Assembly: GCA_038222225.1 (NCBI GenBank)
Contig: JBBRHV010000006.1
Location: 1,626 to 65,625 of the forward strand
From: Candidatus Omnitrophota bacterium
Lineage (GTDB): Bacteria > Omnitrophota > Gorgyraeia > Zapsychrales > JANLHA01
Length of the DNA stretch: 64,000 nt
Direction: 5' to 3'
The translations under genes and the position numbers were made by a program. Positions 3-58,805 of this stretch are shown one piece after another (within the stretch, counting starts at the first letter, position 1; every line of letters begins with the position of its first letter). Below the pieces are notes generated by a model. That model was not told the origin of the DNA, made no database searches, and was given only the letters and a program-made list of their open reading frames with translations.

Positions 3-3000
3 TCTGATCAAAGGCCCAATTCTTCAGAGCCACTAGAAAACAATAAAGCGGTTGTTTCCAAGCTTCTGGCCGGGGTTGTGGTTCTGGTGAGCTTGGTATG
101 GCCGCTTGTTTTGTCCAAGGCCTTTGTATCAAAATATCTGGCGTTCACGCTTTGGGGCACATTGGGAGAAGGATATGTTTGGCAGCTCCTCACGTACAGT
201 TTTCTCCATACGAATCCTTTGCATTTGACCTTCAATGTGATCGCGTTTGTTTTCTTCGCGAATTTCATAGAGAGGGCAGTGGGGGTCAAAAGATTTTTGA
301 CTCTCTTTATCGGAGCAAGTGTTGCCGGAGCAGTCTTCCAGGTGCTGGCAATGGCCGCAAACAGTTTCACCTCGCCGGAATTAGCGGAGGCACTGGATAT
401 CACTCCTCTCATCGGACTCTCAGCAGTAGTAGCCGGGCTGATCGGAGCCTTCGGCGTTGTGCTGCGTGATCAGAAAGTGACATTCTTACTGTTGTTCATT
501 ATTCCGTTCCGCATCAAGGCGCAGCGGTTGGCGCAGATGTTGGTCACCGTCAGCATTGCGGCGATCATTTTCAATATAGTTCGCGGGGCCCAGGGCGGGA
601 TCGCCCACGGGGCGCACCTCGGCGGGCTTATTTTTGGTTGGGTTTATACGGAATATTTGCGGCGTGCAGGAAAGATCGATACGTTCATTATTGAAGAGGA
701 GAAACCCAAGGATCCTTCCGGAACCAACGCGGCGGTATTATCCAACTCAGATCCGGAAGGGGGAGTTGTTTCTTATCCGGCCCGTTCCAGCATCAGCGCT
801 GAAGAAAGGGAAGCAGCAAAACAGGGTACGGGCCCGGAAAATCTCAAGGGCTATGTCGTCAATTCACGGAAGATTCTGGGCGTTCCGGTTGAAGGTCTTG
901 AGATCAGTTATTCGGACCGCAGCGGACAAACAGTTGCTGAATATAAGCCGGGCCGTGTTGCCATTGATCTTTTGGGCCTTGGAGCCCGGGCGCCGCCGAT
1001 CGATCTCGAGCATTCTGCAAAATCCCGTCGCTTCCAGAGCATTATTCATGATGTTGTACGACAAATTATATTAGCTTCTCATTATTATGCCCTTTCAGAG
1101 AAAGATGTCCGTCAGGTTTCAGCCCGGCACTTTATCGGCCGGCAGCAAAAAGTTCAGAATTTTCTGGATCAGGAATTTAATCTTCGCGAATTCGGTCTGG
1201 TGTTTGATCCTGCCTATCTTGAGCTTTTAAGAAATTACCAGAGAATTGATCCTCAAATCGAAAGAATTAAAGAGCAGCTTGATCTCTTCAAGGGCGGGGC
1301 TGTGTCGTTTGAAGAGCTGTGTGAAGCTCTGGATGCGCGCGTTATTCTGAATGTGGCATCGCGTGCCTTATTTGAAGTGGGGAACAGTCCGTACCTGGTT
1401 AAAATTTACCGCGGCGGAACGCTGACGGCGAAGGCGTATGCCGCCGAAAAACAATTTTATAGAGAATATAACCCAACGGTCCAGCCGGAGCTGGTTTATT
1501 GTGATGACAATCTGCAGGCCTTGGTTGTGACGGATTTGAACCAGCTGGGATTGGTGCGCATGTTTGATTTTATTCAAGGGCCGTTCATTACGGAAGAATT
1601 GTTGGGTTGTTCGATTTCTTCCATGGCCCATGCCTTGGCGCAGCTGCATAGCAGCGCTGACGTGGCCTCGCAAACCGGTGAGCGGAAATTTGCTGAACTC
1701 AGGCATGAAGTGGACCGGGCGGTGGAGGTCTTAAGAGCGGCCGGGTTCCAAGGCCTTCCCGATGGAAAGAGCCTGGAGGATTTTCTTGCGCGATTCCAAG
1801 ATTCAGTAGTCGGAGAAAATGAACGATTGGTTCACGGCGATTATCTGATGTGGAATATTTTTGTTGACCCGGCAAGCGGAGAGGTGCGGGCCCTCATTGA
1901 CGGTGAGATGAGCGGTCTTGATTCTGCCGCTAAAGAGATGGCGAACACGATCCTGGGATTGATCGATGCCCGCAAGAATCATCCGTTCTTAATCAGTCAA
2001 ACTGCGGAGATGTTACGGTCGTTTTGGAGAGAATATATCCGGGAGACGAAAGACATTACCGGGCAGGAGATTTCTCCGGCGTTTGAGACTCGGGTCCATT
2101 TTTATTGCGCGGTCCAGTTGCTGATTGGCGCCAGAGTTGCGCATGAGAAATGGGCTAAATGGGCCCATTTCAGAATTGAGATGGCCAGGTTTTTCCTTAA
2201 TCAGGAAGCATTTTCATTGGAAGCTTTCATTGAGTTTTTGAATCATAATATTGGCAAACAACCGATCGGTTGGGTCGGGAATTTTGATGTTGCGACTCAG
2301 CACGGGCAGAGGCCGGGCTCGGGCGTTGAGATAATGATTGATGAAACAGGTTGGGCTGATTTCTTTGCCGAGGTTTGGGTTCCAGGAAACATCGGGGATC
2401 CGATTTTTGCATTGGGTATCGGAGCGGAATTACGTGTGACAAACAGAGACACCGGCGTTGTTTCGATTTGGAGGCCAGTGGAATTTTGTCATTTTGCGGG
2501 GAATAATTATCAATTTAGAGGAAGCGTGTTTTATCTCCAGGCGGGATCGTATGATGTGGAACCATCCTTCTCAGCGGATATGGGAGAAACGTGGTTTATT
2601 CCGCAACTCCCTTATGGCCCGTGTCATCTGACAGTGACAAAAGCATTGTCTGGGGAAGCGCCTTCAGAAAAGATAGTGAGTGTGGTCTTTTCTGACCTTC
2701 ACGGTGAGTTGAATGGTTTCCGTTCAGCGCTTGTAAAGCTCGGTATGATTTTACCGCAAAATAACCCGATGGAAGATATTTGGATTTCTCAAGATGTGAC
2801 GGTGGTTGTGGATGGAGATATCATGGATCGTGGTTTGCGACAGAAAGAGTTATACCACTATATCTGCCATCTCATGTTGACCGCCGAAGAAAGCCGTAAT
2901 CGGGTCATCTTTATCTTAGGAAATCATGAGCTGCTTCATCTTCAGGGGACTCCGGATGATTGGACAGCTCATGCGCTTACAGAAGTGATTAGAGAAGGTA

Positions 3001-6000
3001 TTCTTCGAGGAGATATTGTGGCAGCCGCGTATCTAGGTGGGCGTCTGATAGTTCATGCGGGAATTTTACCTTTTATTACCATGGATTTGATAAAGACATT
3101 ACGCCCAGGATTTTTGACTGTCGTTGCCCATCGGTCAGGAAAGTTCGTAAAGGATCTTACCGCGGTTGAAGTTGCCATCGAATTGAATAAAACACATAGC
3201 GTTCTTTCTGCTGACTCTATCGTGAATGAATTCAATCGGAGATTGCGGTTGGCGGTTGAGAAAGGCGATTATTCTGACGTTATTTTCCAGAGAGGGAACG
3301 CTCATTTTGGCGAGAACAAAAGGCCTGGAGAGTCGGGATATATACCCGGAGGCATATTCTGGGCAGACTATGAAAACGAATTGCGGCTGGTTGACCCGCG
3401 TGCGCTTATAGCGCAGATCGGAGGACATAGGGAGGGGAATGCGCTCCGTTGGACAAAGGGAGCCAGGGCTGTGAACGTCAATCTTTGTTATAAAGAGGGA
3501 TTTGGACGCAGCTCCGGAGTCGCTGTGTTTGATGGACAAAACTGGAAAGCTGTTTATTTTGATGGCCGGCCCATGCAAATTATTCCTGCTGTTATGGAGC
3601 GTGCTGTAAAACGACAGACAACAAATTCGGCAGCAGGTCAAGGCGGAACCAACGCGGCTGTTCTTGAGGGTGCGCCTTTTGAAGAACCGGAAACGGGTCG
3701 GATGAGCAGGCGAAGCATGCTGAAAATGCTGGCGCTGGCAGGAGCAAGCTTGCCGTTCATGACAACGACTGCTTTTGCTGATGAACCGACGGTTGATGAA
3801 GTTTTGACGGAACTTTTGAGCACTCAAACAGCGCATGGCCTCATTAAGAGTTTCAAGGGCACAACCGATACCTTCATGCAGAATCAGGCCGTGACCTATG
3901 ATCAGGCAGCCGCCGGGATCGCAGCTCTTGCGGCCGGAAGGACGGCGGAAGCGGTCAGGATTTTTAATTTCTTTTATAACCAGCATAATGGAGGAGATCC
4001 TGTCTGGAACGGGTTTGTGAATATGTATGATGCGACCCGCGGGGTCAAGGGCAACGAGCGCACGATCCACACAGGCCCGAACATCTGGATGGCGATGTTC
4101 AGCCTTCATCTTTATATGGCAAGCAGCGGTCAACAGGCCACGAAGGCCTTGACCCTTGCCAAAGCGCTCATGCAGTGGGCCAGGGGTTTGAATCATCGCG
4201 ATGGAGCGGTTGCCCTTGGACCGGTCCCCAATAATAATATTTTCTCAACAGAACATAACCTTGATTATTTCGCCTTCCTTAAAGGAATACAGTCGTTTTT
4301 GTCCGCGGCAGAAGCGGCGATCGTTCAAGCAGAAATGGACGGGGTTGGAACATGGTTAAAGACACATGCTTATGACCCGGCCAGAAGATTGTTCAAACGC
4401 GGAGCATATGAAAACCCGGTTGTCTATGCTACAGATACGTCAAGCTTTGCATTTTTATTGGGATCGCAGGTTCTGGAAGATTGGGGCATTGTTCGCTCAA
4501 CATTCATCGGCCAGTCCGATGCTGCCTATCGTGTCGGGACACGCGGTTTTGATGTGGCGAGTGTCGAGAACGCCAATTGGACCCCGCGTTCACGTTATGT
4601 CTTCAGAGAGTTTACTCTTCAGATGGCGGTAGGATTTTTGGTGATGGCTGATGATGAACACGATCGAGGCAATTTCACGCTGGAAAAAACGTATCGTGAT
4701 AAGGCTCAGCTCTATGCTTCTCAATCTGGCATAGATGGTGATTATCAATATTGTGAACAGACCGGGGTTCAGCTCTTTTATGATATTCCGAGCTGGAAAA
4801 CAATTAATGGTCAGTCGGCTTCGGTCATGGCCTGGAAGATATTTGCACTTCTCGGTTTCAACCCGTTTGGATTTGTTACAAAGGTGCGGCTGTCCGTCAG
4901 GCGTCTGGCGGCAACTGGAAATATGGAGTTGACTTTGCGCAAGGAAAGTATGGCGTCGCTCACTGCCGAGATTCTTTATTCAGATGACCTGGGAGATCAG
5001 AAAGAATGGAAGAGCGCCGGTTCAGTGGATTTGAGCGGCCTAAGGGCGGTTTGGGTCGATAACGGTTCTCAGACCACAACACATCCGTCGCAAAGCTCAA
5101 GGAGATTCTACCGAGTCTCGGCTGTAAATTCGTCTGTCCAGGGATTGGGCGCAGTCCATCAGGAGTCTAACGGTTTAGTGCCAGAGACGGTATTAATTGG
5201 GTCAAGCGCAGAGTATGGTCAAGAGTTCAAAGATGCGAATGCAGCAGTTTTGCAGGGGAAATTTGTTCAGACAGTGAAGACCAAAGGATCTGGGCTTAAT
5301 CGCTTTGACCTCGGGCGTTGGGGACGCGGGGCACTGCATTCAGTTCTTGCGCTAACACTGCTCACATCCGGTTGTGAGAAAAAAGAGGATACCCAGGGAG
5401 ATGCGTTGTCGGGAGTCGCGGTTCAGCCTGTTGATAGGAGCGCATTGGAGAACAGGATCAAGGAAGAGGTCCGGAAACTAGAGTATTCTGACAAGAACGC
5501 GGAGGATTTTGTAACGATGCTACGTCAATGGAAGAATGCTCAAGGCCAACCGGTTCTTACTGCGTGGGAGCAGAGCATTCTTAATGCCCGGAAACAATAT
5601 GAGCAGGGAGCCATGACAGCCGATCAGTTGGCCGGGATCGAAGCCGGGGTTGTTGGAGAAGTTGCGATGAGGATCGCTGAAGAATTTTCCGCGAATAATA
5701 ATGCTTTTGAATTGACCGATCTGATTGAAAAGAAACAGTCACAGTGTGTCAGCAGGTCAATGGCGGTAGCTATCGTCGGGAATGTACTTGGATTTAAGGT
5801 TGACTTTCTTGATGTTGATGCCAAGGAGATCAGGGCGATTGACGTTCCATTGGCGGAAAGAACTGTGGCGCATGCGGCCACCCTTGTACATTTGACCGGC
5901 GGGACCGTGATCATCGCCGATTCAGCGCTACGGTTTGTAAGCCGGCCGTTTTTAATGGAAGAAACCTACGCCGCAGTCGGGAACTATTGGGAACTTAAGA

Positions 6001-9000
6001 ACAGGAACGAACCGTTGTTGCTGCATGGACGAATCAGGAAGGCGTCTCTTTTAGCAGAGATTTATAACAATCGAGGCAACGCCTATGGAAGAGCCGGTCG
6101 TTATGAGGAAGCCTTCGCGCTGATGGCGAAAGCGATGGAAATCGATCCGGCATTGGCTGCAGCTTATTACAATCGGGGAGTTCAATATCAGGATCTAGGC
6201 CGGGTAGCCGAGGCAGTGGCGGACTATACAAAAGCGATCGAGCTTGATCCAAGAGATGCTGCTCCATATTGCAATCGGGGGAATATTTACAATACCGCAG
6301 GACGGGATGCTGAGGCTGTTGCTGATTATACGAAGGCCATTGAGCTTGATCCGCAATTAGCAGTGGTGTATTTCAATCGGGGAAATATTTATGGCAGATC
6401 AGATCGGCCAGAGGAGGCGATTGCGGATTTGACGAAAGTGATCGGGCTGAATCCGGAAGATGCCCAGGCTTATTACAGGCGGGCAGTGATTTACGGAAGA
6501 GTCGGTCAGTTAGAGAGCGCCAAAGCAGATCTCTTAAAGGTGCTGAATTTAAGTTCGGATGAAAAGCAAAAAGAACAGATCAAAGCTGCTGTTCGCAAGA
6601 TTGATGACATGCTTAAAGAAATGCCTAAGAAGAGCGCATCATCCAGCCACTCTGTTAAAAACGCTGAAACCAACGCAGCGATCCTTTATCCGTCACGCTT
6701 GGTGCCTGGACAAACGCCGGACTGGGCAATAAAATTCAGAACGACGTTGCCTAGCGATTTTGTTGAGGCGGCCGAGTCAGAGGATGGAGAGCAGGGCGTT
6801 GACAAGGTCATGTCGCTGGGGATTTGCCAGGATTCGCCGGACGTCTCGGAGCTTTTATCAAGATTTTATCGAGGATTGATGGAGAATAGCAACCCATCCG
6901 AGGTCCGCAGTCATTTGATTTATGACACGTGGTTAAAACTTAAAGAGAAGAAGATGGATGAATGGAACGCGACATTGGCGGTGTGGTTTACGTATGTGGT
7001 CTTTCAAAAAGCTTTAAGCATAGAAGCAAAACGATTAGCACAAAAGAATGCTCCGGCGCCTTCTGTTGAGGCATCCACAGAAGTCGCTACAGAACCATCT
7101 TCAAAAGGGCAGGAAGAAGGGGCGTCTGCCCGGGAAGATGAGCGTTACTTGGGGATTGTGATCGAGGTGGAAGGGTTTGGCCAGGTCACACTGACCGAAC
7201 GCATCGCCCGAAACAGCCGGACGCTTCTTTTTAAGACGAATCACCCTGGGCTTTTGATCAAACTTTTTGATCTGAACCACACCAGCATCGCCGGAGCCTT
7301 TGATCCGGTGATCGTCCAGAATTTTGAATTGGAACGCAATAATTTTGTCGAGGTCGCGAAGATCGATGAGCTGAGGCCGTATATTCCGCATTATTATCAG
7401 AGCGGCATCATCAAAGAGAGCAAGTACGCTTTCATCGCCATGGAATACATTGAAGGCACGGACTTAAAGAGCTGGCGGGAACAGGTTATTAACGGACGCA
7501 GTGAAAAGACTTTGACCGCCATTGAGTTCTGGCAGATGATGTCCCAGGCGATGAGCATTTTAAGAATATTCCACAAGTATGACCTGATCTTTTCTGATTA
7601 TAAACTTGAGAATATTCTAAGGCTGGCAGACGGACGTCTGAGGTTCGTTGATCTGGGAAGTGTTTTCCTTATTCATGGCTCGATCAAACCGCAGGATTTT
7701 CCGTATTCAGCAACAATGGAGGATTCGGAAGTTTTTGAAAACGCTGTCACTTTGAAGAACGGAAAGCCGCTGGCGAAAATTTCCGATATCTTCTGTGTGG
7801 GTGTGAGCCTGTTTGAATTCGCCACAGGCCAGGACCGTTTGACGCTGAGTCGTGAATATGCGGATATGCTTTTGACTCATTTACGCGTTATCAACCCGCG
7901 GATGTCTGAAACCCGGCTGTATTTTAATTATTATCCTCATCTTAAGGGAAAATTACCGACGCTGGAAGATCAGCTGCGTGAAGGATACGTCTTTTTTGCT
8001 GATTTTTGGCATTTGCTGCACGAAGTTCTTAAATATACCCAAGACGGTTATGAAGACATGGGACAGGCTGAAAAGGATGTTGTCCTGTTGTCGGCGGGGA
8101 TCGATTTTATCCGTAAGCAGCTTGGGCCTCTGGGCTGGGTGGCAGAGCCTGTTGCCCGGGCGACAGTTCTTAGACGCGTCCGGGTTGACAGTATTCATGA
8201 TCTGCTTTTGACGTTCCACAGCCCCTTGGGAGCGGAGGTCGTTGATGACCTTCGCCGTCACAACTGTTTTGTTGGTTGTGCTGAATCACAGTTCGGACAG
8301 CAGGGTTTCGTGGAACAGATGAGCACTTGGGACGTGCGTCTGAATTCGCACACTCAGCATTGGGCGGTCCAGGCGCCGGTCGCATTCAGGCATGATACAC
8401 AAGAAGCCGGTGCGTTGTTCTTGCAGCAGACCTACACGGATGAGGATGGCCATCGGTATTATCACATCACAAGCATGGAGGAGGCGGATGAATTGCCGAA
8501 CGGGGAAAAATTGACCCTGGCGCATTTGGAGGATGATCCGTACGCTTGGCTGGGAGCTCCATCGCAGGAAGATAATCAGGGTGGAAACTCTAAGAAAAAG
8601 CCTGTTCCAGCTCCTGAGAAAGAAAAGATAGTCATTGCGGGTAACGAAAGTGAGAAGCAGAAGAAAAAAACCAAAAGAAAATCCAGGAGGCAAAAGCTTC
8701 CAAAACCGACGACACGAGAGGAGGCCATCGCGTTGCTGATCCAAGCGGCCGGACGTGTTCCTTCGAACATTGCAAAAACCCCGCATCTTGTGGCCGACTT
8801 TTCACGCGGAGAGTTGACCGCAGCCAAGATCAAGAGCATGGCAAGGCAATGGGGGATTACGGGATATGATGTGCCGATCTCGAATTTGCCTTTTAGAGCG
8901 TATTCACGGAATGCTTCTTCAGACGAGCAAACAAATTCCTCTGTTCTGAACGAAGATATTTCAAAAACCGGACCTCCGCAGGGCTTTATTCATGTGGATG

Positions 9001-12000
9001 TCCATCCGGAAATTTGTTCGTTTAACGCCCTTGCTGAAGTTCAGCATCAATTTGGGGAGCTCACCACCATTGTTGTTGTTTATAGACGAGCCGCCGCTCT
9101 TCTTCAAAGGAAGCCGGTTTATGCCTCGCGTGAAAATGATATCATCATTCATTCCGACGGGATTATTTCTCAGGATCAGCTTATTTCGAAAATAAAAGGC
9201 CCTATCGCGCGCCTGTTGGTAACCGGCAATGAATTTGAAAGCTGTGTTGCCCGGGCTGTTTTTTCCATCAGAGAATTTATGCGGGATCAATATTCTGCCG
9301 GGTTTGTCTTGGATGTTCATTTTCCGATGGATTTGATCGTTGCCAATCGTCATGACTATCGCGATGGGGGATATCAAAAGATGATCGCGAATATAAAAGG
9401 CGGGGACTTTTTCTACAGCTATAAATTTCAAGCCCGTCGGATTGCCTATGACATCTATGATGGAACCGAACTGATCTGCCCTTGTGGGGAGGGAAGCGAA
9501 AATATTTCCAATCTTTATGTATGGCCATCTTTACAGAGCATGAAAGATGAATTAAGCCGAGGAACCGGCGGGACCAACGGGGCTGTTCTTGAATCAGGAG
9601 AGGGCGGCGCCTACAAGGAATTGATTTGTCGGTTTGACATGAAAGAAGATTATGAGGCGGATGATTGGAAGGAATCACGGGTTCTTAAGCGCGTGGCACT
9701 TATGAAACAGATCAGGTTGGGTTGGAAATATCCTCAGATGGGAGAACCGTCGGAACAATGGCTCAATGAGCTGAGAGAACTCGTTCTTCATCGTCTTTGG
9801 ACAAAGCTTCAAAAAGCACATCGTGGAGACATGTTTTTCCCTCAAGACATGGTTTCTCTCAATCGGTCGCTGAATCAGCCGTTTGTTTTTATCGTCGATG
9901 AACTTTTAAAGAACGCCCTTGATGCCCAGGCCTTGGCAGGGCAAAGCGGAAATGTCCATCTTGCGAGATCGTTGCAAGGCGGAACATTCGTGATGGCGGT
10001 TTCTGATAACGGAATCGGCGTCCGTCGCCCATTCTTAGGCTCAGAGCAGCTGGCTTGTATTGAGTCTTTGGCAGATCAGCAGAAGAGACGTAATACTCGT
10101 TTGGAAGCAAGTGATGGGGCTGGATTGATCTGGGTTCAGTATCTGGTCGCCATGCGGGGAGGTAAGCTTGAAGTCGAATCTCCCGGTCGCAATGAAGCCA
10201 GGACTACGGTTGTTGTGTCCTTGCCGGCGGATGCGTTAACGGTCATTGACAAGACGGGCTTAGGTTCTCAGACAAATGCTGCAGTCCTTCAAAAGAGAGA
10301 AGATGTCGCTACGCGGTTTATTTTTAGGTTAGCTGATCATTATGGTCTTTCTTCCACTTGTGATCCGCAGGAGATCCTTCAGGTTCTTCGTGCCAGGGGA
10401 ATCTTGAGTTCAGGGGAAGAAAGGGCGTTTGTCAGATATAGAAAAATTTTAAAACAGATGTATCCGGAGCTGAGCCTTGGGCAGGCTGAAGCACGCTGGA
10501 CGGAGGGCTACACATTTTTCGGGAATAATTCTTCTGAGGATTGGGAGCTTTCCGGACTGACGGAAGATTTTACGGTCATGGTTAAGAAACACATCGAAGG
10601 GATCCGGGCCGTTGAACACACCGATCATCCTGCGGATCAGGGCTGGTGGAAGGAAGATGGGCTGAAAATAAGAGTGATCCGGATTACGGATAGTCTTGAT
10701 TTAAAGGCGGCGTTACCGAACGAAAAAACAGAAAACCTGCCGCTGTCATCTGATGATGAAAACGGTTCACTGCACCTCTTTGAGTTTTTGTTCAAGAAGA
10801 TCTTTATTGAGCCAAAATATTTTGGCCTGGTAGCTTTCAAAGAAGGAAGGCCTGTTGGTGTATATGGGGTTTTTGTTTTAAATGATTGGAGAACGATCTC
10901 TGGGCGCGGATTATATGTCGTTCCATGGGAAAGGTATAAGAAAACAAATATCGGGTGGATGCTGGTCTCAAGGATGGCGGAATTGTTCGCGCTCAATGGC
11001 TATAAGTATCTTTATATCCCTGTGGCCAACCGTCCGTCGGCGCAGAAATTTTTTGAGAACGTGTCGGACAATACTGGACGCTTCCAGTTTTTCACAGAAA
11101 CAAAACGGAACGATGACGGAAAAATTCAAAAGGTTGCTGTGAAGCTGCAGGAAAGGTTCACTCCGGTTCAATGGGACATTGATCTTAAGCGTCAGATCGG
11201 CCAAGTCAACAGCGCGGTATTAAATACGAGCCTGTTGCAGCAGGTCCAAAATATGGAGGCAATGTTTAAAGCCTATGAATCGATTCTTAGTGACCATGGC
11301 CGACAGATACACGAGAGAGTTCGAGTGGTTTTAAGAGCAGCTTCTCAAGGCGTGATGAATGCAGAGCAGCAAAAAGAAGTTCGGGCGCTCGTGGCGTTGA
11401 TGCCTGATCCGCAGCATATTGATATTGAATCCGGCGGAGAAAAGAATTGGATCCGTTGGTTTGATTTAAGCCCGGAAAGACTGGGCGCATCTTTAGATCA
11501 AAGCATTGCCGATGGATGTGCGTGGCCGTGCCTGCATTGTGCGGCGTACAATGGCCATGCCAAAACAGTGATGGAGCCGCTTCCTGTTGTGATCGCAAAA
11601 ATTTTAAGCAGAACACAAACGGATATTATTTATCCATTCCAGTTCGATCTGATTTCTTGGCGGGATCTTTTCTTTGGAGTCGGCATTTCGGGATTAGCAG
11701 AGTTTATATCACGGTATAACCCGCAATATCAATTACGGTCATTGCCGACACGAGGTTGGGATAGCGATGATGCCTTTGTTCAGAACGAAGCCCTGCATCT
11801 TGCGCAGCTTAAAATCGCTAGTGGTATGTTCATTCTTTCATTCCATCTGTGCCATCAGCGGTATGACATCTTGCCGGCTATTGCGCAGGCGGTCAGGAAC
11901 GGAGACCGTGCAGAACTCGATGCACTGATCGATGTTTATGCAGCACGTTATGCGAATGTGATCGCTACGTTAAGTCCTGCGCTTGATCGGGTCAGCGTAT

Positions 12001-42000: not shown

Positions 42001-45000
42001 TGGAATTTCTTGAGATGTTTGTTGTGCAGGCAGCTCAGAGAATCGAACAATTACGTCGGGAAAAAAGGCATAAAGAGGCCGAACATGCCATCCAAGGAAT
42101 GCGTAGGCTTTTGGACAAGACCCCGCTGGCGGAAACTTTCAAGCAAATGCTAGGAGACATTGACCGCCGTTTGCAAGAAACACAACATAGAACGCCGGTT
42201 TCCGAGCGTATCCAAGAAGGAGCAAATGGCAATGAAACAAATTCTGCTATCGCGCATGGGACTGACAATGCAGATAATACGGGCAATGTACCGGATGAGG
42301 TAGGAGCAAGGCTTAGTGCTGAGGTCTGGCTGGATGTGGCGCATTTGGATGCGGAGGCGGTCAATGGGGTTTTGAGATTTAAGGGGAACGATGGCTCTGG
42401 ATTGACGTCTTTGACTTTGACAGACCTTCCGGTGAGTGCCGCTCTGGATCAATTATGGTTTTTGTGGTTTAAATGGAAGAATGACAGAGAAGCATTTTAT
42501 CGTGATTGGCTTTCTCATCTCCGAAACATTCCTTTATCGTTTTCTCACTTAAAACAAGAAGACAATTTAAAACAAGCTGTGCTCAGTAAAGGGCGCATGG
42601 CTTTTGCGATTCATGTGGCTGCCAATATGCGTTCTGACCGTTGTTTGTACGAACGATTAGAGGCAGCCGCGAGATCAGGAGCGCATACGGTGCTTGTCGT
42701 TTCCGGCGGAGGCCTTTATCAGAAAATTTTACGAAGAGTACCGTTTGGACGGTATGTGTTCCGTGATGGATCTTTGAAATTGATTCACATGTGGGCCAGT
42801 TTGTCGCGTGAGGGAAAGGTCCCTCCGGGTGTGAGGATCGCCGTTGCGCTTAATTCGAATTATATCGGCTCGAAGGCAAAGCGCGAAGCGGTTCGTTTGG
42901 TAAAGAAAGTGAAGTTGGCTCAAGAATTGGGCATTCCGCTTTCTCAGATCGAAATTCATACCATGGCTCCTTTGACCGGGTTTGAGTGGGTTGACGGTAT
43001 CGGGCTTTGGAACTTGCGCCATGTGGATGCGATCGCGTTTTTCAGGGACATCTTATTACCAGTTTTAGCAAAAAATGGAATTGGTACTAAAGAGTTAACC
43101 GTTCGTTTTGGTGTGGCCCATGTGATGAATGCAACAAACTATGCATTTTGGGTGTATTTGGCTGGCCGATCCGTCGATGAAAAGAGTGCGGGCCGGGCGT
43201 ATGACACTTGGCGAAAGCATTCACGTGCTGATCAACTGGCAAAAGCATGGTGGAGAGTTCAGTATGAAGTCAATAAGCGGATTCAGGAGCAGGCGTCTTT
43301 TGGTCACGTCGCATTGATCTTTCAGCCGGCGGCAAAGAAGGCGGGGGATGCGGTTATCCGTTGCGCGTCTTTTGTGCAAAGTGTGAATAGCGCGGTTTTA
43401 AAGACAGCAAGACAAAACGGGCTTATCAGCGATTCAATCATTATTCAGGAATTAGGTTTTATGCGCAGGATGTTTACGGCCTATGAGGGAATATTAAGTG
43501 AACAAGGCCGCAGAGCCATACAGAATATCAGTGAATTCATGAGTAGTCTTCAAAGAGGCTCGGCGGGGGATGATGTTCGCCGGAAAGCCGTCGAGTGGAT
43601 CTATAAAATGCCGGAACCGTTGCAGTTGAATATGGAAGACGAATGGCTGACGTGGTTTGATCACAAGAAAATCCAGTTGTTCCCTTATGGTTTAGGGGGC
43701 GGGTGCACGGAGCCTTGCTTGCATTGTTTTTGGGGGAATCCTGTTCCAGTGGCGAATCTAAATCCTCTTCCTGCCGTATTTCTCGGCGCGAAAAACAGCA
43801 AACGAGAAGTTCTTACGTGCGGACATTTTGATGATCTGGAATGGTATGACCCCTTATTCGGAATTGGGCTAGACAGCATTGTGAAGTATTATTTGAATTC
43901 AAATCCACGGCAAAGGTTAAGTCTTTTGACTCGCGGTTGGGAAAAAGAACATGCAAGAAAACAACAGGTTGTTGAGAACATTGTTCGTATTGTATCCGGC
44001 GCTGATTATAACTTTGAATTTGGAGTTTCCTTTAATCTTGCTCAGTCTGGAAAATATGATCTCGCTAAGGCGATTCAAAGTGGAAGGCTGGAGTCTGTTT
44101 TAGAACTGTATGCTCAGCGTCATCAACACATTTTAAGGACGCTTCGAGGCTTGTCGAAGATCCGATACGTGGTTCGTCCGCTTCTGCAGGAGCGGGAGTT
44201 GGATCATCCCACAGAGAAATTGCTTGGCATGGTCTTGCGCAAAGCTGAGGTTGCGGCTGCGGACGTGAGAAGGGCGGAGGCGACCGTCATTGGAAGCAAT
44301 AGAAACAGCCGAATCCCCTGGGGCCCAGGAACGCTCACGATCGAATGTGATCAATGCATCAATGAGACCGGTTCCGGCGGTGAGTTTATTCGAAGCATTG
44401 ACTCGGCGATTCGCGGAGAAGATTTTGTGCGAAGTTCCTACGGGCACATATATAGAGAAGGCATGCCGTGCGCTCAAATACACGGTGCTACAAATGAGAT
44501 CGTTGTTGTTCTTCCCAGCGGAAAGCGGGTGATGCGAGGACCGATAAGCGATTTTCCGATGAGGACGGTAAGGCAAAAGGGCGCTGCTCAAGGTGGCAAC
44601 TCTGCAATTTTAGCTGAGAAATTCAGTGATTGCGTTGATATCGATTTTGAGAGGATGTTACAAGACCGGAAAAAGAAGTTCTCCTCCAGTTGGCCGCATC
44701 TTGATTTTACAAATCGCATTTTGATTCCGTTTCCTCTGCCAATGTTGCGGGTGTACGGAAAAGAACCATTTCATGACGAAGATATTCAGCGCGTTATTTA
44801 TGAGCTTTTAACCAATGCTCACGATGAGGCGCCGGCCGGGCTGATCAGAGTGAATTTTGAATTGGGAAGCATTGATTCGCAGAACGGCCTAAGTCTTTTT
44901 ACGATCCAGATCGAAAATGAGCGCACCGGAGAGATCCCGTTTGATCAGATGTTTCGGTTCCTGTTGGGACAGGCAATCACCGGGAATCTGTGGCGTAATA

Positions 45001-48000
45001 AGACGACGGATCAGCCGGTCATTGAACGGATCCAGAACCGTTGGGAAGTTGGGGAATTGGAAAACATGCCGGACATTTACGAGCGCGTACCTGACCGTCT
45101 TCAGGCCCTTGCGCTGGCCCACCGCTATGTTCGTCAATATGGGCTTAAGTCGATCCTCTTTCTTGAAGGAGTCGGTCGAAGAAAAAGTAGAGAGAGAAAC
45201 GAGATCGGCGGAGTGGGCGTGGGACTTTATAACAGCCGGTATACCATCAATCGATTAGGGGGAAAGATTGATCTTGATGATACGCGCTCGGGCCGGACCA
45301 CGTTCGCGATCGGATTTTTTGTCCGGGAATTTTCATTGAGGCAAAAAGGATCGGATGCGTTTGTTAGCGGTGCTAACTCTGCGGTTTTTAGGGGATCGAA
45401 GGATTCTTCTCTTGATTCTCTGCTTGAGAGCATCATGGCGTCCCACAAAGAGAGCGGGGTGCGATCAACGCCTTGGGCTGCAAGGATGGACAAGCCGCTT
45501 GACCGCACAGGATTCAACGGGCCGCACCTTTTCGCGAATATTGAATTAACGAACGAGCAGGTTCGGTTGTTCCTTATCCTTAAAGAGCATAAACAGGCGC
45601 TCCTCAATTTACTTGGTGAAAGCTTCAGAGCTGTATTTGGGAAAGCGGCAGGGATCCTTCTTAATCAAAATGTTTCTGGATTTAAGGCAACACAGGTCGA
45701 TGAACAGTATTTAACTTGTACCGTTGGTGATCTTTTTATTCCAGCCATCGAAAATGCTTTTGATGCCTATATGAAAAAGAGCGGCCAATCATCCGATGTT
45801 CCGTTGGTTCTTGAATTTTATATTTCCTTTGATGGCCGGGTGATGATTGCGGAGATGCGCACCAATGGTCTGTCGTATGATTCCGGTGAGACCGCGACCT
45901 CCGAAAAGAAAAAGGACTCGGATCAATTGGGTGGAAAAGGGCGCGGACTGAAAGCCATTGATGAATTTGCTGCATGCATCGGCGGGATCCAGTGGGATAT
46001 CCGAAACCGTAAAGATCTTTTTCCTGAGGATGCGGAAGGATCTGTTTTTTATGTATCTCTTCAACGGGATAAGCTTTCTCAAATCGTCAGTCATGCGGCG
46101 AAGTTTTTTGGTCTGGGTTCGTGCGCGACATGCCCAGAGGATAGCGTCAGAAGAAATGCCGACGCAACGAGCAAGAATAGTGGAGCGAATTCTGCAGTCT
46201 TGAACGGAAACACGGATGATTCGACGGGAAGTGATTCTCAAAAGAAGCGCTTGGAAGATTTCTTGAGCATGGCTAAAAATTCACAGTTGGAGGCGTTTTG
46301 GTTAATTCATGAATTAAAATTGGATCAAATTGAGCGGGCCGTTTCCGTTGGCAGCGGCGTGCTTGCGTTGGCGCCGTTTGAAATGATTTTAATCGAAAGC
46401 GGTGTTGTGGTTACGATTTTTGATCCCGATCCAAACGTTCAGGAAAATTGGGCGCAGTATAAAGCGCGAAGGCTTAATGGCCATTGTGTTGACCTTGTAC
46501 CGTTATCCAGATCAAAATTTGGAAGTTCAGCACAGCCGATCCAGGGTGCGCAGATGTATATTACGATGAATGTTTTTGGTCGTTCGGGCATTCCTATGAC
46601 AGAACGTGCACAAATGTTAGGCCTCTTAGCGAAAAGTTTTAAAAACGGGGACTTTCTTTTGAATGGATGGTGCAGTCCGCTGGCGTTTGAATTGATTGCA
46701 AATTCGCCGGCACCCCAAGAGGATGTCAGGGTCGAGACCGCGCTCAATCACGAGCATATGCTGGCCTTGGTGAATCTTTTGGAATCGCGGCATATGATGT
46801 TGGAGCCTGTCCGTTTCGGCAGGAAGGAGGACGTTCTTCATCAGAGGGACTTTTATCGAATTATTCCGCTCGGATCACCGGTGATGCCGGTAGCTGATAA
46901 AAATCGAAAAAAGAAGGGTGAGCGCCAGCCTGGAAAGAGGATGTCCGAAGATAAAGGCGCCAATGCTGCTGTTTCGCAAAATAATGAAGGCGTTCCGGCG
47001 GATGATCGAGGGATCGATTGGAAAGGATTAAGGGCAGGGCTTGAGCAGGGAAGTTCCTTGTCGTTCGGCAAGGTCAAGCAGCTGATCCGGGCAGGGAACA
47101 AGAAGGTGTTTGGTCTGCTGCAATCTGTCGTCGCCGGCCACAGCAAACAAGAGGCTGCGGTTTGGCATTTTATTTTGACGGTGGATCTTGATCGGGAATA
47201 TTCAGCCCATTTGGGTTCGAACATGAGAAATTTGAAAATGGCTGTTATCCGGGCCGCGCAAAAGGATCTTGAAAAAGGCGGTGTGCCCGGGTCCGATCTT
47301 CTGGAGCAGTCTGTGTCCTATGGTGATGAAGATTCTTTGAGCGCTCTTCAAAGGGTGGCCTTCGGTGTCAGCAAAGGGAAATTCCTTGCGATCAGAGTAA
47401 TCTTTGAGGCGCAAAAGGAAAAGAGTCCGGCGTCTCCGCAAATACGGGCTGTTTGCCGGGGATTTTTGAACACGATCGCCTATAAATTAGGCGAAGGGAT
47501 CGAGAGGGATCCAGAAACGGGGTTACTCATACTTGGAGCGCTTGTTTTTGAGATGCCTTGTGAACCGATAGGGGAAGGGGCCCGCGGGATATTAAAAAAT
47601 ATCGTCGATGGGAAGTGCCGGTTGACTAAAGAGAAAAGGATTGAGGCGTTGAATTCTTTGGTGGAATGCGTTCGTGACGGAGGCTCTGTCGATTTGCTGG
47701 AGTGGATTTTGAAGGGCGTGGCCGCGCTTGACGGCAAAGGCTTCCCGCGTCTCAATAGCTGGAGCGTTCAAGAGATGCTGGGTTCGCTTTTCCACAATGT
47801 TTCGGTGGCGCCAGTATTGCGCTTGTATGCTTATGGACTGATGCCATTGCCGGAAAACGAGACCGAAGCGCTTGTATTAGCTAAACGTGTGTTACATGAA
47901 AAGGCCCATTTGACCTCCTTGGAACTATTTTCAGACAGCGGTGTTTGGCACAATGAAGAGCTTAAGGTTTATATCTTGGCCGTGTATTTGATTATGGTTG

Positions 48001-51000
48001 CGAAAATAAAAAGAAGCAGTTCCTTTTTTTCACGATGCCAGAATCAGGAAGATGACATCGACAGCATTATGACCGGCACGATGCTGAAAGAAGATTACGG
48101 CGGGATTGGTAACAGCAAGCTGCAGTTCGGGCGCAAAGATCTTATCGAGGACCGCAATGAACCGAAGATGATGTTCGGTACCTGCGCCCACGAGTGGACG
48201 CATATTTTTAACCGTTGGATTATTGAAATTTATAGGATCGAAGAAGAGGATGGACAGGATGCGATCGATGAATTTTTGGCGGATCTGGGTGCGGAAATGT
48301 TTTTTGGAGAAATGGGCTGGCAGCAGGCAAAAGAGGTGCGCCGGAATAAATTTGTATTTCAGCACGCGAAAGTATTTGGGCGGAGTCCCCGGGCAGATCA
48401 GATCAGCCATGAGCAGCATGAGGCGGCCCGTGTCGCCTATAAGGAGATGCAGCGGTTTTTGGAAGCCAGGGAAAGGGAGACCGGTGAACGCGTTCCTCTT
48501 TCTGGAGAGATGCTGTTTTATCTTTGGGGTGCTTTGGGAGAGAGGAAAGCAGAGGAGATATCGTTTGTCATGTTGCAGGATTTGCTGCAGGTCCGGTATG
48601 GTTATGCGGAGTTTGTTCATCGGCGGAAAAACAAGTTCCAGTCCCGTCCCCTCGCGGATAGCGAGATGGAAGAAAAAGGAGTAACGCAACGTGAACCTGA
48701 TAAGGACATTGTTTATGTGATCAGATGTTGGCATGTAGAGGAAGAGGAGCGCGCCGAGCTGTTTGAAGGACCAAATGTTTTACGAATTGCTGTTTCATCC
48801 GGCACAGAACCGCAGGCCAGCGGATCCCAGGATATTCAGGTCATACAAGAGGCAACAAACCCGAAGGATGGAGAAGCGCCATCTTCTAACGCCAACTCTG
48901 CGGTTTTAAACTATTGCGTCGCGTGTTTTGCCGGCGTTGTCGCGTCTCCCTGGGTCGCATTGCCGGTTGACGTTGTCGCAAGCATTGCCATGATGTGGGG
49001 AATCATTGTTATGTCTGAGGGGATCGAGATGCGGCACTCTTTAATTTTTAGGGCTCTCACCTGGATCAAAGACCGTTATGAATCACGCAAGGTCACGATC
49101 GAATTTTTGAAAATGGTCTTGAGGTTTGCAAACATGGTTGGTTTGTATGCGCTTTTATCTTTTTCGTGGGGAACGCTCATTTTGCAATGGATCTCGTTAT
49201 TAAGCATAAAGCTGGATTGGCCTGAGTGGATGACTTTTATAGCAGCGCTCCTACCGGCAGCAGCCTTCATCAGCGGAGTAAGTATGGTGGTGGTCCCGGA
49301 GATCATCCGGGTGCATAAGGAATGGAAGAGATATCTTAAGAATATCCGGGGAGATCGTGCTCCGGAATGGATGGCCCAAAAATACAGCCATATCTCCGCG
49401 GAAGAATTGCTCCACCGTTCGGTGAGGATGAAGCGTATTGGGCGGGTCTTGTTAGCTGCTGTTTGGGGAATAGGTATCATTCTTTTGGCGATGTCGTTCC
49501 AGCATGCTCCGCACATGAAAGTTCTTAAAGGCATAAGCATTGTTGTTCTGTTTTTTTATTATCAGACATTGGTTGCAGCCCGGGAAATGAAGAAAATGGC
49601 AGAAGAATTGGAGCAGACAAAAATTCTAAGGGAGGCTTCTTTAAAAGCCAACCGATCCAGGGCAGGGCCGCCGGTCAGTTCTTATTCGGATTTTAAAGGT
49701 GGTATCAATTCAGCAGTATTGAGTGAACAGAGCGAACCGGATCATACGTCTCCCAATAAAGCAATTTTTGATTTTGTTCGACAGAGTCTCGGGGATGGAA
49801 CAACCCAAACAGTGAATGAGGTGGCGGAAGCGCAAAGACCCGTGATTCTGCAGGGTGGCAGAGATCAGGCGCTTAGAGCAGGTAATGATTCTTTGCCTGA
49901 TGATTTAAGAAAAGTCAATGCCGGTTATCAAGCGGACATTTATTTCTCGCCGAGTCGACGGATGTTTTATAAGGTCAGGAAATCCACGCTGTCTGCCTAC
50001 TATAGGTCATTACGGAATCATCTTCTTGATCGCGGGCTGTTCAGAACATCGGCGTATCTGTGGATTATGGACACGCTGCGGAAAAATTATCAAAGGTCCG
50101 CTGGAATGAAGACCGTGGAGGGTCAGCCTTTTTACGATATTCTTTCGCAGGCCGGTAAGGCCGGACGGCCGAACACCGGTGTTCTTGTCCGCATAACGAA
50201 GATGCTTAAGGCCTTCAGAGCGGTTGTTAGTTTTTGTATTGTTATGGCTGGCAGTATGTTTATTTTTTCAAAGACGGTCAGGGCTGAGAAGGCGCTTTTC
50301 CATGACAATTATTTCAAGGGTTATGAGGACATGCTTAAGTTTGGGTTTGTGCAGCAAGGATATGTGGCAGATTTTCGAGTGATCAGTGTCCCTGCGGAGG
50401 ATCGGAATGGAATTTTTAAATGGAGATGGTTGGAGCGGAACCGAAAGGTCATTGAACAGTCGGAAGTGGTTGAACTGATACAGGTGTTGCGGGAAATGAC
50501 GGATGCGCAGTTTTATGTAGCGGTCGAGCGTTACATTGAGATCCAGCATGCGTTTTGGCGCTGGGGATTTTTTAATCATGCTTTGGGATTTTTGGGAAAT
50601 TATGGATATGTCAAAGATAATGGTCAGACCAACGGACCACTGGTCCTTTTTGACCCGGGAGAGATCGTTAGTAATGGTGATAACGCCGAAGATAAAATTT
50701 TGGAGGTAGTCGAGCGCAAGAAGGAAGGGGCGTATAAGGACCTCAACGCATTGAATCCAGTTTGGGGGCAGTATTACAAGGTTAGAGTTGAGGCTGAACT
50801 AAACCGCTCCAAATTTTACGAGCTTTGGTGCAGTGAAGCCGGGTGCCGGATAGAGACAATCCAAAATTATTCCACTAACGCCGCGGTCGGTTCCAAATCC
50901 CGTTTCGTTAGCCGAAAAAGGGAAAGAGAAGATCGTCCCGCGATGGCCTTGCCGAGTTGGGAAGAGTTCAAGGACCCTCGACGGTCATGGCTGGTAAAAT

Positions 51001-56891: not shown

Positions 56892-57002
56892 CTGGCCGGG
56901 ATTTCTATAAAATGGTTTTGGTAAAAATAAAAAATTATATGAATTTTAGATTTTATGTATAATAAGTGAACTTGCGGTTGTTTTATTAGGGATATTGAAG
57001 AC

Positions 57003-57011
57003 GAAGGAGAG
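57003..57011 (+). promoter_or_regulatory. Shine-Dalgarno sequence (GGAGAGG) for the aldolase gene
   Basis: aaggagaggaaaaa ATG: a purine-rich SD lies 6-8 nt upstream of the ATG at 57018. The 125-bp AT-rich intergenic region upstream also contains TATAAT at about 56957-56962. Confidence 0.5.
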
Positions 57012-57017
57012 GAAAAA

Positions 57018-57968
57018 ATGTATAGACCGGAAATTCGGGTGTTTGACTGCACGATCCGCGATGGCGGGTTGATGAACAACCATTTATTTGATCACAGTTT
57101 TGTCAGAGATGTTTATAAAGGATTATCCGAGGCTGGGGTTGACTATATTGAGCTCGGATATAAAAATTCCAAAGATCTTTTTTCGCCGGAGGAATACGGC
57201 GCCTGGAAATTCTGTGAGGATGACGAAATCCGAAAAGTGACCGAAGGCATTGAATCCAATGCCAAGATCTCGGTGATGGTGGATATCGGCCGGGTGAATA
57301 TGGAAGATATAAAACCGGCTTCTGAGAGTCCCGTGCACATGGTCCGCGTGGCCAGTTATGTGAAGGATATTGATAAGGGGATCTCGATGGCCAATGAATT
57401 CCATGATAAGGGTTATGAAACCACCATTAATATCATGGCTATTTCCAAAGATCAGGGGCCGGACCTCGAAGCCGCTCTTTATCAGATCGAAAAGGAAAGC
57501 AAGGCGGATGTGGTGTATATTGTGGATAGTTTTGGGTATTTTTATCAGGAAAATATTGAGCATTTGACCAAGTTGTATAAGAGGATTTTAAAGACACGCG
57601 AGATTGGTTTTCATGGTCATAATAATCAGCAGTTGGCCTTCGGCAACACGATTGAAGCGATTATCCATGGGGCGAATTTTCTGGATGCAACAATTTTCGG
57701 GATCGGCCGGGCTGCCGGGAATTGTCCGATCGAGCTTTTGCTCGGGTTCTTAAAGAATCCGAAATTTGATATCCGTCCGGTTCTTGATCTGATCTCCCGG
57801 GATTTTGTCCCGTTGCGTGAAAAGATCGAATGGGGATATGTCATTCCTTACGCGATCGCCGGTATGCTCAATGAGCATCCTCGCGCTGCTTTGGCTTTGC
57901 GAAAGACGGAGAAGAAAGAGAATTACCGTGATTTTTATGAGAGTTTGACTAATACGGGGTTGGATTAA
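57018..57968 (+). CDS. DRE-TIM metallolyase, 4-hydroxy-2-oxovalerate aldolase (DmpG/BphI)-like / pyruvate carboxyltransferase family
   Basis: DCTIRDGG resembles the DVTLRDGxH start, VYIVDSFG resembles IYMADSGG, and GFHGHNNQQLAFGNTIEAIIHGANFLDATIFGIGRAAGNCPIELL resembles [45 protein letters not shown] of HOA aldolases. A strong SD lies upstream. Confidence 0.8.
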   Translation: MYRPEIRVFDCTIRDGGLMNNHLFDHSFVRDVYKGLSEAGVDYIELGYKNSKDLFSPEEYGAWKFCEDDEIRKVTEGIESNAKISVMVDIGRVNMEDIKPASESPVHMVRVASYVKDIDKGISMANEFHDKGYETTINIMAISKDQGPDLEAALYQIEKESKADVVYIVDSFGYFYQENIEHLTKLYKRILKTREIGFHGHNNQQLAFGNTIEAIIHGANFLDATIFGIGRAAGNCPIELLLGFLKNPKFDIRPVLDLISRDFVPLREKIEWGYVIPYAIAGMLNEHPRAALALRKTEKKENYRDFYESLTNTGLD

Positions 57969-58147
57969 AAGACAGCGTAAAGGGAAGCGGCAGGTGATAG
58001 AAATACAATTGAAATATAATGGAAATACATAGAAATAAGAAATTCGGAAAAAGAGAAAGCTTAATCAGAGCAAGTAATCGTTAGGGTTTTTTATTTCAAT
58101 GTATGTCTATATTTTTCCATGTATTTCAATCTGTTTTTAATTTGAGT

Positions 58148-58777: not shown

Positions 58778-58805
58778 TGTCTTGTGATGATAAGAGGCAT
58801 AGATA

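Follow-up and report, generated by a model that had tools for sequence, protein, structure and literature searches.

A 64,000-nucleotide (nt) stretch of contig JBBRHV010000006.1 from a Candidatus Omnitrophota bacterium, the whole of which is referred to below as the window, carries one giant open reading frame (ORF; 78..56891, + strand) of 18,937 amino acids (aa) with zero in-frame stops. Within it, 56 copies of a short junction peptide delimit about 57 protein-sized modules, a layout suggestive of a polyprotein, and we consider it probable that the chain is cut at these junctions on the cytoplasmic side. Three of the modules are of protease families, namely a rhomboid, a CPBP/Rce1-like intramembrane protease and a soluble zincin of a previously undescribed family. 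That the zincin performs the cleavage is put forward here as a tentative proposal. Coordinates are positions in the window, and aa numbers are residues of the ORF as listed from 78 to 56891.

A recurrent junction peptide delimits the modules of the giant ORF

The junctions follow the consensus [GE]-[TVA]-N-[SA]-[AS]-V-L and separate modules with a median length of 276 aa (mean 332 aa). The peptide is enriched approximately 260-fold over control ORFs. The strict form N[AGS][AS][VI]L occurred 39 times in the ORF, compared to 0.28 on average and at most 3 in 1000 shuffles, and to 3 copies in control ORFs from unrelated loci comprising 383,418 residues. Elsewhere in the window it was scarce, with at most two copies in the other five frames and none in the flanking genes. 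The most conserved position was the Asn (53 of the 56 sites), which was always followed by Ser, Ala or Gly, and the sequences flanking the junctions were hydrophilic and rich in Ser, Gly, Asp, Asn, Lys and Pro. Not one of the 56 junctions fell within a Pfam envelope (P about 3e-4), and the module limits coincided with whole proteins, for example the rhomboid, AlaDH and the PALP enzyme. Junctions also bound each of the three protease modules.

Synonymous codons are used freely at the motif, which places the constraint on the peptide. A function of the motif at the nucleotide level was rejected on the same ground and in view of the scarcity of copies in the other five frames, and internal translation starts were rejected because the module beginnings are devoid of start codons and no stops occur between modules. 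Some junctions are closely spaced, lying 19-65 aa apart (aa 10389/10408, 13378/13399, 1684/1721 and 7361/7426), and would release very short peptides if cut. No prior description of the motif was found in the literature on the motif itself or on bacterial polyproteins, including by full-text search.

The 3' ends of the giant gene could be compared with those of two additional lineages (L002/L083/L084, 3,628 aa readable, and L082, 1,077 aa). Flanking genes shared 75-82% nucleotide identity with these relatives, whereas alignment inside the giant gene was possible over no more than the final ~710 nt. The last module was 57-63% identical at the aa level, and the modules upstream of it were non-homologous, including in the relatives NAD-GDH (1,339 aa, the whole protein in one relative) and SPASM/radical-SAM modules. 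Because the flanks are this similar while the upstream module content is entirely different, the giant gene has been reshuffled far faster than its neighbourhood. Junctions were found amid this turnover, between modules non-homologous to those of the window, as NASVL, NSAVL, NSAVL, NAAVL, NSSIL and NAAAL in L084, and as NAAVI and NAAVL in L082, with no strict-form motif in the relatives' flanking genes.

An internal paralogue of the last module (22911-23846 compared to 56070-56888, 39-52% identity) carries an inserted GGVNAAVLVP, which divides it into two modules, at the position where the terminal copy has MAEA, and the junction thus behaves as a portable element. Both copies end in a hydrophobic helix followed by an Arg/Lys cluster (RRR in the conserved last module), an arrangement that resembles a C-terminal sorting signal.

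Export signals follow junctions in two giant proteins

The module at aa 1192 reads NAAVL-EGAPFEEPETGRM-SRRSMLK-MLALAGASLPFMTTTAFA-DEP, in which a twin-arginine (Tat) signal starts 18 aa after the junction (Pfam TAT_signal, E 0.0062; NCBIfam TIGR01409, 16.1 bits with a cut-off of 16.7). It is the sole Tat-like site found in the window ORF. A second giant protein carrying a homologue of the zincin, P0054 (NCBI MBP9864989.1, Candidatus Omnitrophota, partial, 5,008 aa), contains the repeat A-[RK]-S-E-V-R in 11 copies compared to 0.08 expected, distributed over aa 344-3407 and sometimes in tandem 10-27 aa apart. The sole Tat-like site of this protein (TRREWIK; TIGR01409, 17.4 bits, above cut-off) lies 19 aa after one of the repeats. 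By our own estimate, the joint chance of both placements is ~0.006, with 9% and 7% of the respective sequences counted as junction-proximal. Tat signals function only at N-termini, and their start 18-19 aa after junctions in two giants suggests that the chain is cleaved and that the junction marks a new N-terminus. The different repeat in P0054 suggests, moreover, that junction motifs are lineage-specific. Sequence reading indicated further modules with export-type beginnings, namely a putative lipoprotein signal after the junction DANAAVL, an RR/AxA Sec-like signal in the module at aa 7924 and N-terminal anchors at the start of others; none of the lipobox, Sec-like and anchor starts had support from Pfam or NCBIfam hidden Markov models (HMMs).

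A different interpretation is that the giant stays uncut and works as one membrane-anchored mega-enzyme, in which the repeat serves as a linker or as the place where a shared partner docks, and the proteases are enzymatic domains like the others. Published surveys do treat such giants as single polypeptides, peptides of the V. archaeovorus giant ORF have been detected with processing not reported, and cleavage is here a prediction from sequence. An intact chain would, however, leave the Tat signals behind junctions in two independent giants without an N-terminus, and modules with a single predicted transmembrane (TM) segment would put the NAD- and PLP-dependent enzymes downstream of them outside the cell. 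Together with the retention of the heptapeptide between unrelated modules and across species, this makes an uncut giant improbable in our judgement, and cleavage at the junctions is the reading pursued below.

The three protease modules

An earlier note on this DNA, made from the sequence alone, had claimed that three different types of protease are encoded in frame in a polyprotein, and all three were recovered here, alongside ~54 other protein-sized modules. The rhomboid domain, placed at 78-670 in that note, was recognised by HMM search (PF01694, 79.9 bits, cut-off 22.6, E 2.8e-22, aa 32-195). In an alignment of the window copy with 14 homologues (A1, 15 sequences), the His/His/Asn of TM2, the Gly-x-Ser of IGLSAV and Ala-His-x-Gly-Gly were invariant. 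AHGAHLGG had accordingly been named correctly as the His motif, whereas GASVAG, which had been taken for the Ser motif, aligns with TM3, and the predicted catalytic serine is Ser 115 in IGLSAV. TM2-TM6 are visible, and TM1 overlaps both the window edge and the start codon as listed. The closest relatives are stand-alone rhomboids of Verrucomicrobiota (~287 aa, 37% identity), the end of the rhomboid lies ~20 aa short of the first junction, and the rhombosortase model (NCBIfam TIGR03902) gave 35.8 bits, below its cut-off of 84. Judged by the PF01694 match and the alignment, the module is a genuine protease-family domain with its catalytic residues intact.

The view that the rhomboid is the first recognisable module of the chain depends on where the window begins. 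No start codon is present ahead of the GTG at 78 and the frame is already open at window position 3; in light of this open frame and of a TM1 that straddles the GTG, the giant ORF very probably extends upstream past the left window edge. Searches with the rhomboid module revealed no upstream continuation in genome, metagenome or viral contigs.

For the CPBP module, previously located at 12500-12840 by its EExxxR, FxxxH and HxxxN motifs, the assignment held up. PF02517 matched aa 4151-4242 with 49.5 bits (cut-off 22.4, E 5.5e-13), and EEIQYR (12567-12584), FVAVH (12657-12671) and HMISN (12783-12797), motifs taken from the sequence by reading and not from a family alignment, occur in the right order within the match. 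This too is, as far as sequence comparison can tell, a genuine protease-family domain with intact catalytic residues. Two models of CTERM-sorting proteases scored below their cut-offs (MrtJ NF033192, 33 bits with a cut-off of 75; MrtS NF040589, 30.5 bits with a cut-off of 130).

The third candidate had been recognised by its HExxH motif, which by itself is weak evidence of a zincin; the ORF contains 3 copies compared to 0.66 expected, and one of these is the GNHE of a metallophosphatase module. Direct searches with the zincin module were empty (Pfam at E <= 0.5, NCBIfam, and PDB sequences at E <= 10), a word-seeded search of 5.8 billion protein clusters gave no match, and a single-sequence AlphaFold model was unusable (pLDDT 37). 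A full HMMER scan that covered 1.84 billion representative proteins yielded 11 homologues with E values down to 4.5e-39, of which all those with a source name are from Omnitrophota. Most members of the family are long, and several are very long multi-enzyme proteins (6,545, 5,008 (partial) and 4,315 aa).

In an alignment of 13 sequences with 16-29% identity (A3), only six columns were invariant, comprising A-H-E-x-x-H, a Glu at +27 and a His at +76, counted from the first His of the motif. The family profile gave weak matches in the PDB almost solely to zinc peptidases, the best being the metalloprotease domain of ArdC (E 0.0018, with HExxH and Glu both aligned), followed by weak matches to aureolysin, thermolysin, CapP and Ste24. 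Glu 16065 aligned with the segment E-x-x-A-(D/E) that bears the ligand in ArdC and aureolysin. Weak Pfam matches were also obtained for some of the homologues, to M48 (5/13, best E 1.1e-4), M78 (3/13) and MPTase-PolyVal (2/13). An alignment-based AlphaFold model of aa 15888-16187 (nt 47739-48638) displayed a thermolysin-like catalytic fold (pLDDT 80.5, pTM 0.84), and no TM segment was predicted in the module by a hydropathy scan.

Taken together, the invariant residues, the PDB and Pfam profile matches and the alignment-based model identify the third protease as a genuine, though so far predicted, thermolysin-fold gluzincin, belonging to a previously undescribed family that no Pfam or NCBIfam model covers. 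The zinc peptidase claimed at about 48186-48203 was thus substantiated, with a motif invariant in all 13 sequences. The accompanying guess of an M48 or SprT affiliation came close, considering the matches of the homologues and the ArdC match of the profile, but the window copy itself remained below threshold, with no match to the M48, M78, SprT-like and MPTase-PolyVal models at E <= 0.5-1.

Which enzyme could act at the junctions

We propose that cleavage at the junctions would take place on the cytoplasmic side, while the chain is being translated or shortly afterwards, and that the released modules would then fold, insert into the membrane or be exported individually. The soluble zincin would be the most plausible junction protease of the three, and could begin in cis, at the junctions on either side of itself, before acting in trans. 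Zincins such as thermolysin usually prefer a hydrophobic residue directly behind the bond that they cut, a preference that fits a cut before the conserved Val. As no TM segment is predicted in the zincin module, the enzyme is presumably soluble, cytoplasmic and able to reach the junctions, most of which lie beside soluble enzymes of the cytoplasmic type and have no TM segment close by. Both giants with a junction motif (the window ORF and P0054) contain a member of the family. With the Val taken as position 0, their junction types (NSAVL and ARSEVR) agree in that Val, in Ser at -2 and in a small residue at -4. The rhomboid and the CPBP protease would more likely be cargo, which after release could take on ordinary membrane jobs such as trimming anchors or sorting signals.

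The earlier note had instead envisaged a chain threaded or anchored at the membrane and trimmed, in which case the rhomboid, alone or with the CPBP protease, would cut at the junction motif. Both domains are intact, a TM helix follows closely after six or seven junctions, and the small residue followed by hydrophobics loosely resembles the rhomboid recognition rule, reportedly set out by Strisovsky and colleagues in 2009 as a small P1 and a hydrophobic P2'. The conserved Asn is nevertheless foreign to this rule, ~45 of the 56 junctions have no nearby TM segment and flank cytoplasm-type enzymes, and neither P0054 nor what could be read of the relatives' giants yielded either protease. In GlpG structures, both termini of the six-helix rhomboid are cytoplasmic, the active site opens to the outside, and cleavage takes place in or next to TM helices. 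With an outward-facing active site and both termini in the cytoplasm, the rhomboid cannot plausibly reach the junctions, and membrane threading with trimming at the motif is therefore very improbable; we likewise see only a slight chance that either the rhomboid or the CPBP protease is the junction enzyme. What stands of the earlier proposal is the cutting, which the junction peptide and the Tat signals favour, while nothing ties the two intramembrane proteases to the junctions. CPBP-like motifs seen by eye in P0045, P0047 and P0052 were dropped, as they were unsupported by Pfam or phmmer.

The prominence of the Asn, always before Ser, Ala or Gly, could alternatively point to a separation without any protease, either by self-cleavage through Asn cyclisation or by 2A-like ribosome skipping. 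Asn peptide lyases are indeed known, the nodavirus coat protein being cut between Asn and Ala and poliovirus VP0 between Asn and Ser. These lyases need a folded catalytic setting, however, whereas the junctions lie in hydrophilic, probably disordered linkers, and the A[RK]SEVR of the second giant has no Asn at all. Ribosome skipping of the 2A type depends on NPGP and, to our knowledge, has no known case in bacteria, which weighs against the ribosomal variant. A separation of this kind is accordingly given very little credence.

Another possibility is that the junctions are cut, but by an enzyme encoded elsewhere or among the unrecognised modules, with all three proteases being cargo. Pfam and NCBIfam leave about half of the modules unassigned, and a protease that went unrecognised could be one of these. 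The zincin family is rare (11 matches) and occurs also in long proteins without the junction repeat, and the closest kin of the rhomboid are stand-alone rhomboids of the housekeeping type. The junction would also suit a Ser/Lys-dyad protease, a type that includes signal peptidase and birnavirus VP4, since [TVA]-x-[SA] with [AS] after it conforms to their Ala-x-Ala rule. On the other hand, no peptidase family beyond the rhomboid, CPBP and zincin was detected in the ORF at E <= 0.5, regular-expression scans of the ORF for GDSGG, DTG, subtilisin, caspase and papain signatures gave nothing convincing, the conserved flanking genes include no protease gene, and the zincin is present in both motif-bearing giants. 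An enzyme other than these three is hence possible, if on balance unlikely.

Several observations weigh against cleavage by the zincin or make the case for it less secure. The link between the zincin and the junctions consists of two proteins and an argument from topology, for which TM segments were predicted by a crude hydropathy scan. Two members of the family, P0050 (6,545 aa) and P0052 (4,315 aa), have no recognisable repeated junction, and with only 11 homologues in 1.84 billion proteins the family is not general to Omnitrophota giants. The 3' parts of the relatives' giants (up to 3,628 aa) have junctions, and no zincin was found in them. The window copy reads HEWTH where its homologues have HE[LIM][GM]H, mostly HELGH, and about eight of the 56 junctions are degenerate, e.g. 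NGSLH and NASIS. Finally, cleavage as such is itself a prediction drawn from sequence.

Comparison with known systems

The 81% identity of MnmA to its counterpart in Candidatus Omnitrophota bacterium RA.bin146 and the conserved order of the flanking genes place the ORF among the known Omnitrophota giant genes, in the 'multi-enzyme' class. Giants of the 'Archaeovorin'/dockerin type were described from this phylum by West-Roberts et al. 2023 (bioRxiv 10.1101/2023.11.21.568195), who proposed self-cleavage of the giants by embedded C39 and S8 peptidases and described the points of cleavage as unknown. 'Multi-enzyme metabolic cluster' giants were read as single chains by Nielsen & Lui 2026 (bioRxiv 10.64898/2026.06.07.730766), where the four longest proteins were chunked and signal-peptide calls were suppressed except in the first chunk. 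The present ORF shares with these giants the phylum, a length above 10,000 aa, the many Pfam families and the presence of embedded peptidases, for which a cutting role in such giants had been suggested before. It differs in that its peptidases are a rhomboid, a CPBP protease and a new zincin family in place of C39 and S8, and in having a defined junction peptide, with Tat signals inside the chain directly behind junctions. Neither of the two studies mentions the junction peptide. The giants and the idea of self-cleavage by embedded peptidases were thus already known, and the junction peptide and the zincin family are new here.

The closest functional analogues, by analogy of design, are viral polyproteins and MARTX toxins. 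Polyproteins processed by picornavirus 3C, coronavirus Mpro or birnavirus VP4 likewise comprise many proteins per ORF with a short conserved boundary motif, include the protease itself as a unit flanked by its own sites, and may have tandem sites close together. The window gene is in contrast chromosomal, cellular and ~10x longer, it encodes metabolic, regulatory and membrane modules, its candidate enzyme is a zinc metalloprotease, which is unusual for polyproteins, and its cleavage is a prediction. MARTX and the large clostridial toxins are also large bacterial multi-effector proteins with a built-in protease that cuts short linkers between modules. MARTX toxins, however, use an InsP6-activated cysteine protease that cuts after Leu inside the host cell and carry 3-5 effectors in 3,500-5,300 aa, and no homology between them and the window ORF was detected.

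Sorting systems of the CTERM type (rhombosortase with GlyGly-CTERM, and MrtJ and MrtS with JDVT-CTERM and Synerg-CTERM) provided the best NCBIfam matches of the window rhomboid and CPBP protease, and the hydrophobic helix and RRR cluster ending the last module are a further similarity. The scores are far below the cut-offs, though, and the junction is internal and usually has no TM helix after it. With gluzincins (M4, M1) and minimal zincins (M48, M78 ImmA/IrrE, SprT/Spartan and ArdC), the new family shares HExxH and a downstream Glu ligand. It is set apart by the extra invariant His at +76, by a fused helical-repeat N-terminal region and by its membership, since those members with a named source are all Omnitrophota and most are long.

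Other features of the locus

Downstream of the giant ORF lie ordinary genes for an HMGL-like aldolase, KDPG aldolase, a membrane protein, a radical-SAM enzyme, MnmA and MutL. Across 54530-59152, the window is 100% identical to an independent Logan assembly of SRR19962012. The gene at 58806-60353, 3' of the giant gene, encodes a multi-pass membrane protein of 515 aa and has no nucleotide match in the otherwise syntenic relatives, and an alignment gap to these relatives extends between 58766 and 60447.

According to Pfam, the ORF is tiled by at least 17 distinct domain types, none of them dominant, including HATPase_c, GNAT, methyltransferases and radical SAM. A single frame combines cytoplasmic enzymes and regulators with membrane and exported proteins. 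A protein search with the last 1,000 aa of the ORF gave no match. Three paralogous modules without a Pfam match are located at 11208-12377, 38808-39200 and 43386-44597, two being full-length with a CxxxCxxC motif (radical-SAM-like) and the third a truncated N-terminal copy; in the relatives, SPASM-domain modules occur immediately before the last module. The module at 15852-16745 (aa 5259-5556) is alpha/beta-hydrolase-like with an AYSYG motif resembling a nucleophile elbow, was matched by neither Pfam nor NCBIfam and could be an unrecognised serine hydrolase or peptidase. A 180-bp tandem duplication (41109-41470, 2 copies, 91% identical) falls in the coiled-coil-like module at aa 13399-14054. 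At least six GNAT acetyltransferase modules are present in the one chain. Speculatively, a cut after the Asn would create new N-termini with Ser or Ala, which are typical substrates of N-terminal acetylation. The coordinates of the features are collected in Table 1.

Table 1. Features of the giant ORF and positions of the junction Asn residues in the window
Feature	Position (nt)	Strand	Details
Giant ORF	3..56891	+	listed from GTG at 78; frame open from nt 3; ~57 protein-sized modules
Rhomboid intramembrane serine protease module	3..725	+	PF01694 domain at nt 171-662
GASVAG, non-catalytic	312..329	+	aligns with TM3 in A1
IGLSAV, rhomboid catalytic Ser motif	411..428	+	Ser aa 115 (nt 420-422); G113 and S115 invariant in A1
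AHGAHLGG, rhomboid TM6 His motif	603..626	+	predicted catalytic His aa 180 (nt 615-617); A-H-x-G-G invariant in A1
First junction, (GT)NAAVL	726..740	+	directly after the rhomboid module; one of 56
Junction GTNAAVL with twin-arginine signal 18 aa later	3651..3788	+	SRRSMLK, hydrophobic stretch, AFA/DEP
Junction DANAAVL with lipoprotein-like signal	5238..5375	+	basic stretch, hydrophobic stretch, LLTSGC; start of TPR module; sequence reading
CPBP/Rce1-like intramembrane protease module	12378..13637	+	aa 4101-4520; junctions at 12378 and 13638; Pfam domain nt 12528-12803
Soluble zincin module	46962..48893	+	aa 15629-16272; junctions at 46962 and 48894; helical-repeat N-terminal part and thermolysin-like domain
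AHEWTH, HExxH zinc-binding/catalytic motif (predicted)	48186..48203	+	His 16038, Glu 16039, His 16042; A-H-E-x-x-H invariant in 13 sequences
IDEFLADL	48264..48287	+	invariant Glu 16065 (nt 48270-48272), predicted third gluzincin zinc ligand; A3 column E178
EQHEAARV	48411..48434	+	invariant His 16114 (nt 48417-48419); A3 column H227
Last module, only giant-gene part conserved in relatives	56070..56888	+	aa 18665-18937; after junction ATNAAVL
Closely spaced junction pairs	31242-31313, 40209-40286, 5127-5252, 22158-22367		
Junction Asn (aa/nt)	217/726, 1192/3651, 1684/5127, 1721/5238, 2199/6672, 2953/8934, 3167/9576, 3400/10275		
Junction Asn (aa/nt)	3562/10761, 3711/11208, 4101/12378, 4521/13638, 5104/15387, 5259/15852, 5557/16746, 6033/18174		
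Junction Asn (aa/nt)	6239/18792, 6433/19374, 6977/21006, 7361/22158, 7426/22353, 7612/22911, 7725/23250, 7924/23847		
Junction Asn (aa/nt)	8935/26880, 9002/27081, 9203/27684, 9567/28776, 10113/30414, 10389/31242, 10408/31299, 10758/32349		
Junction Asn (aa/nt)	10960/32955, 11345/34110, 11806/35493, 12232/36771, 12399/37272, 12911/38808, 13042/39201, 13378/40209		
Junction Asn (aa/nt)	13399/40272, 14055/42240, 14437/43386, 14841/44598, 15100/45375, 15371/46188, 15629/46962, 16273/48894		
Junction Asn (aa/nt)	16544/49707, 16934/50877, 17437/52386, 17508/52599, 17939/53892, 18166/54573, 18328/55059, 18665/56070		

Implications

With 56 junctions, exported modules and three protease candidates with named residues, the locus turns the matter of whether, and where, such giants are cut into specific predictions. 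If cleavage is confirmed, it would represent a large-scale polyprotein strategy in a cellular organism; published topologies and 'largest protein' readings would then need revision, and the giants would be better analysed per module. A wider and more doubtful extension is that these Omnitrophota may encode a ~2-MDa polyprotein of ~57 unrelated proteins, among them a lipoprotein and a Tat-exported protein besides membrane proteins and cytoplasmic enzymes, which is cut by an in-chain zincin at lineage-specific junctions, with the junction and the specificity of the enzyme co-evolving while the modules are reshuffled. Should this be true, some Omnitrophota would express a sizeable part of their proteome in the way that RNA viruses do.

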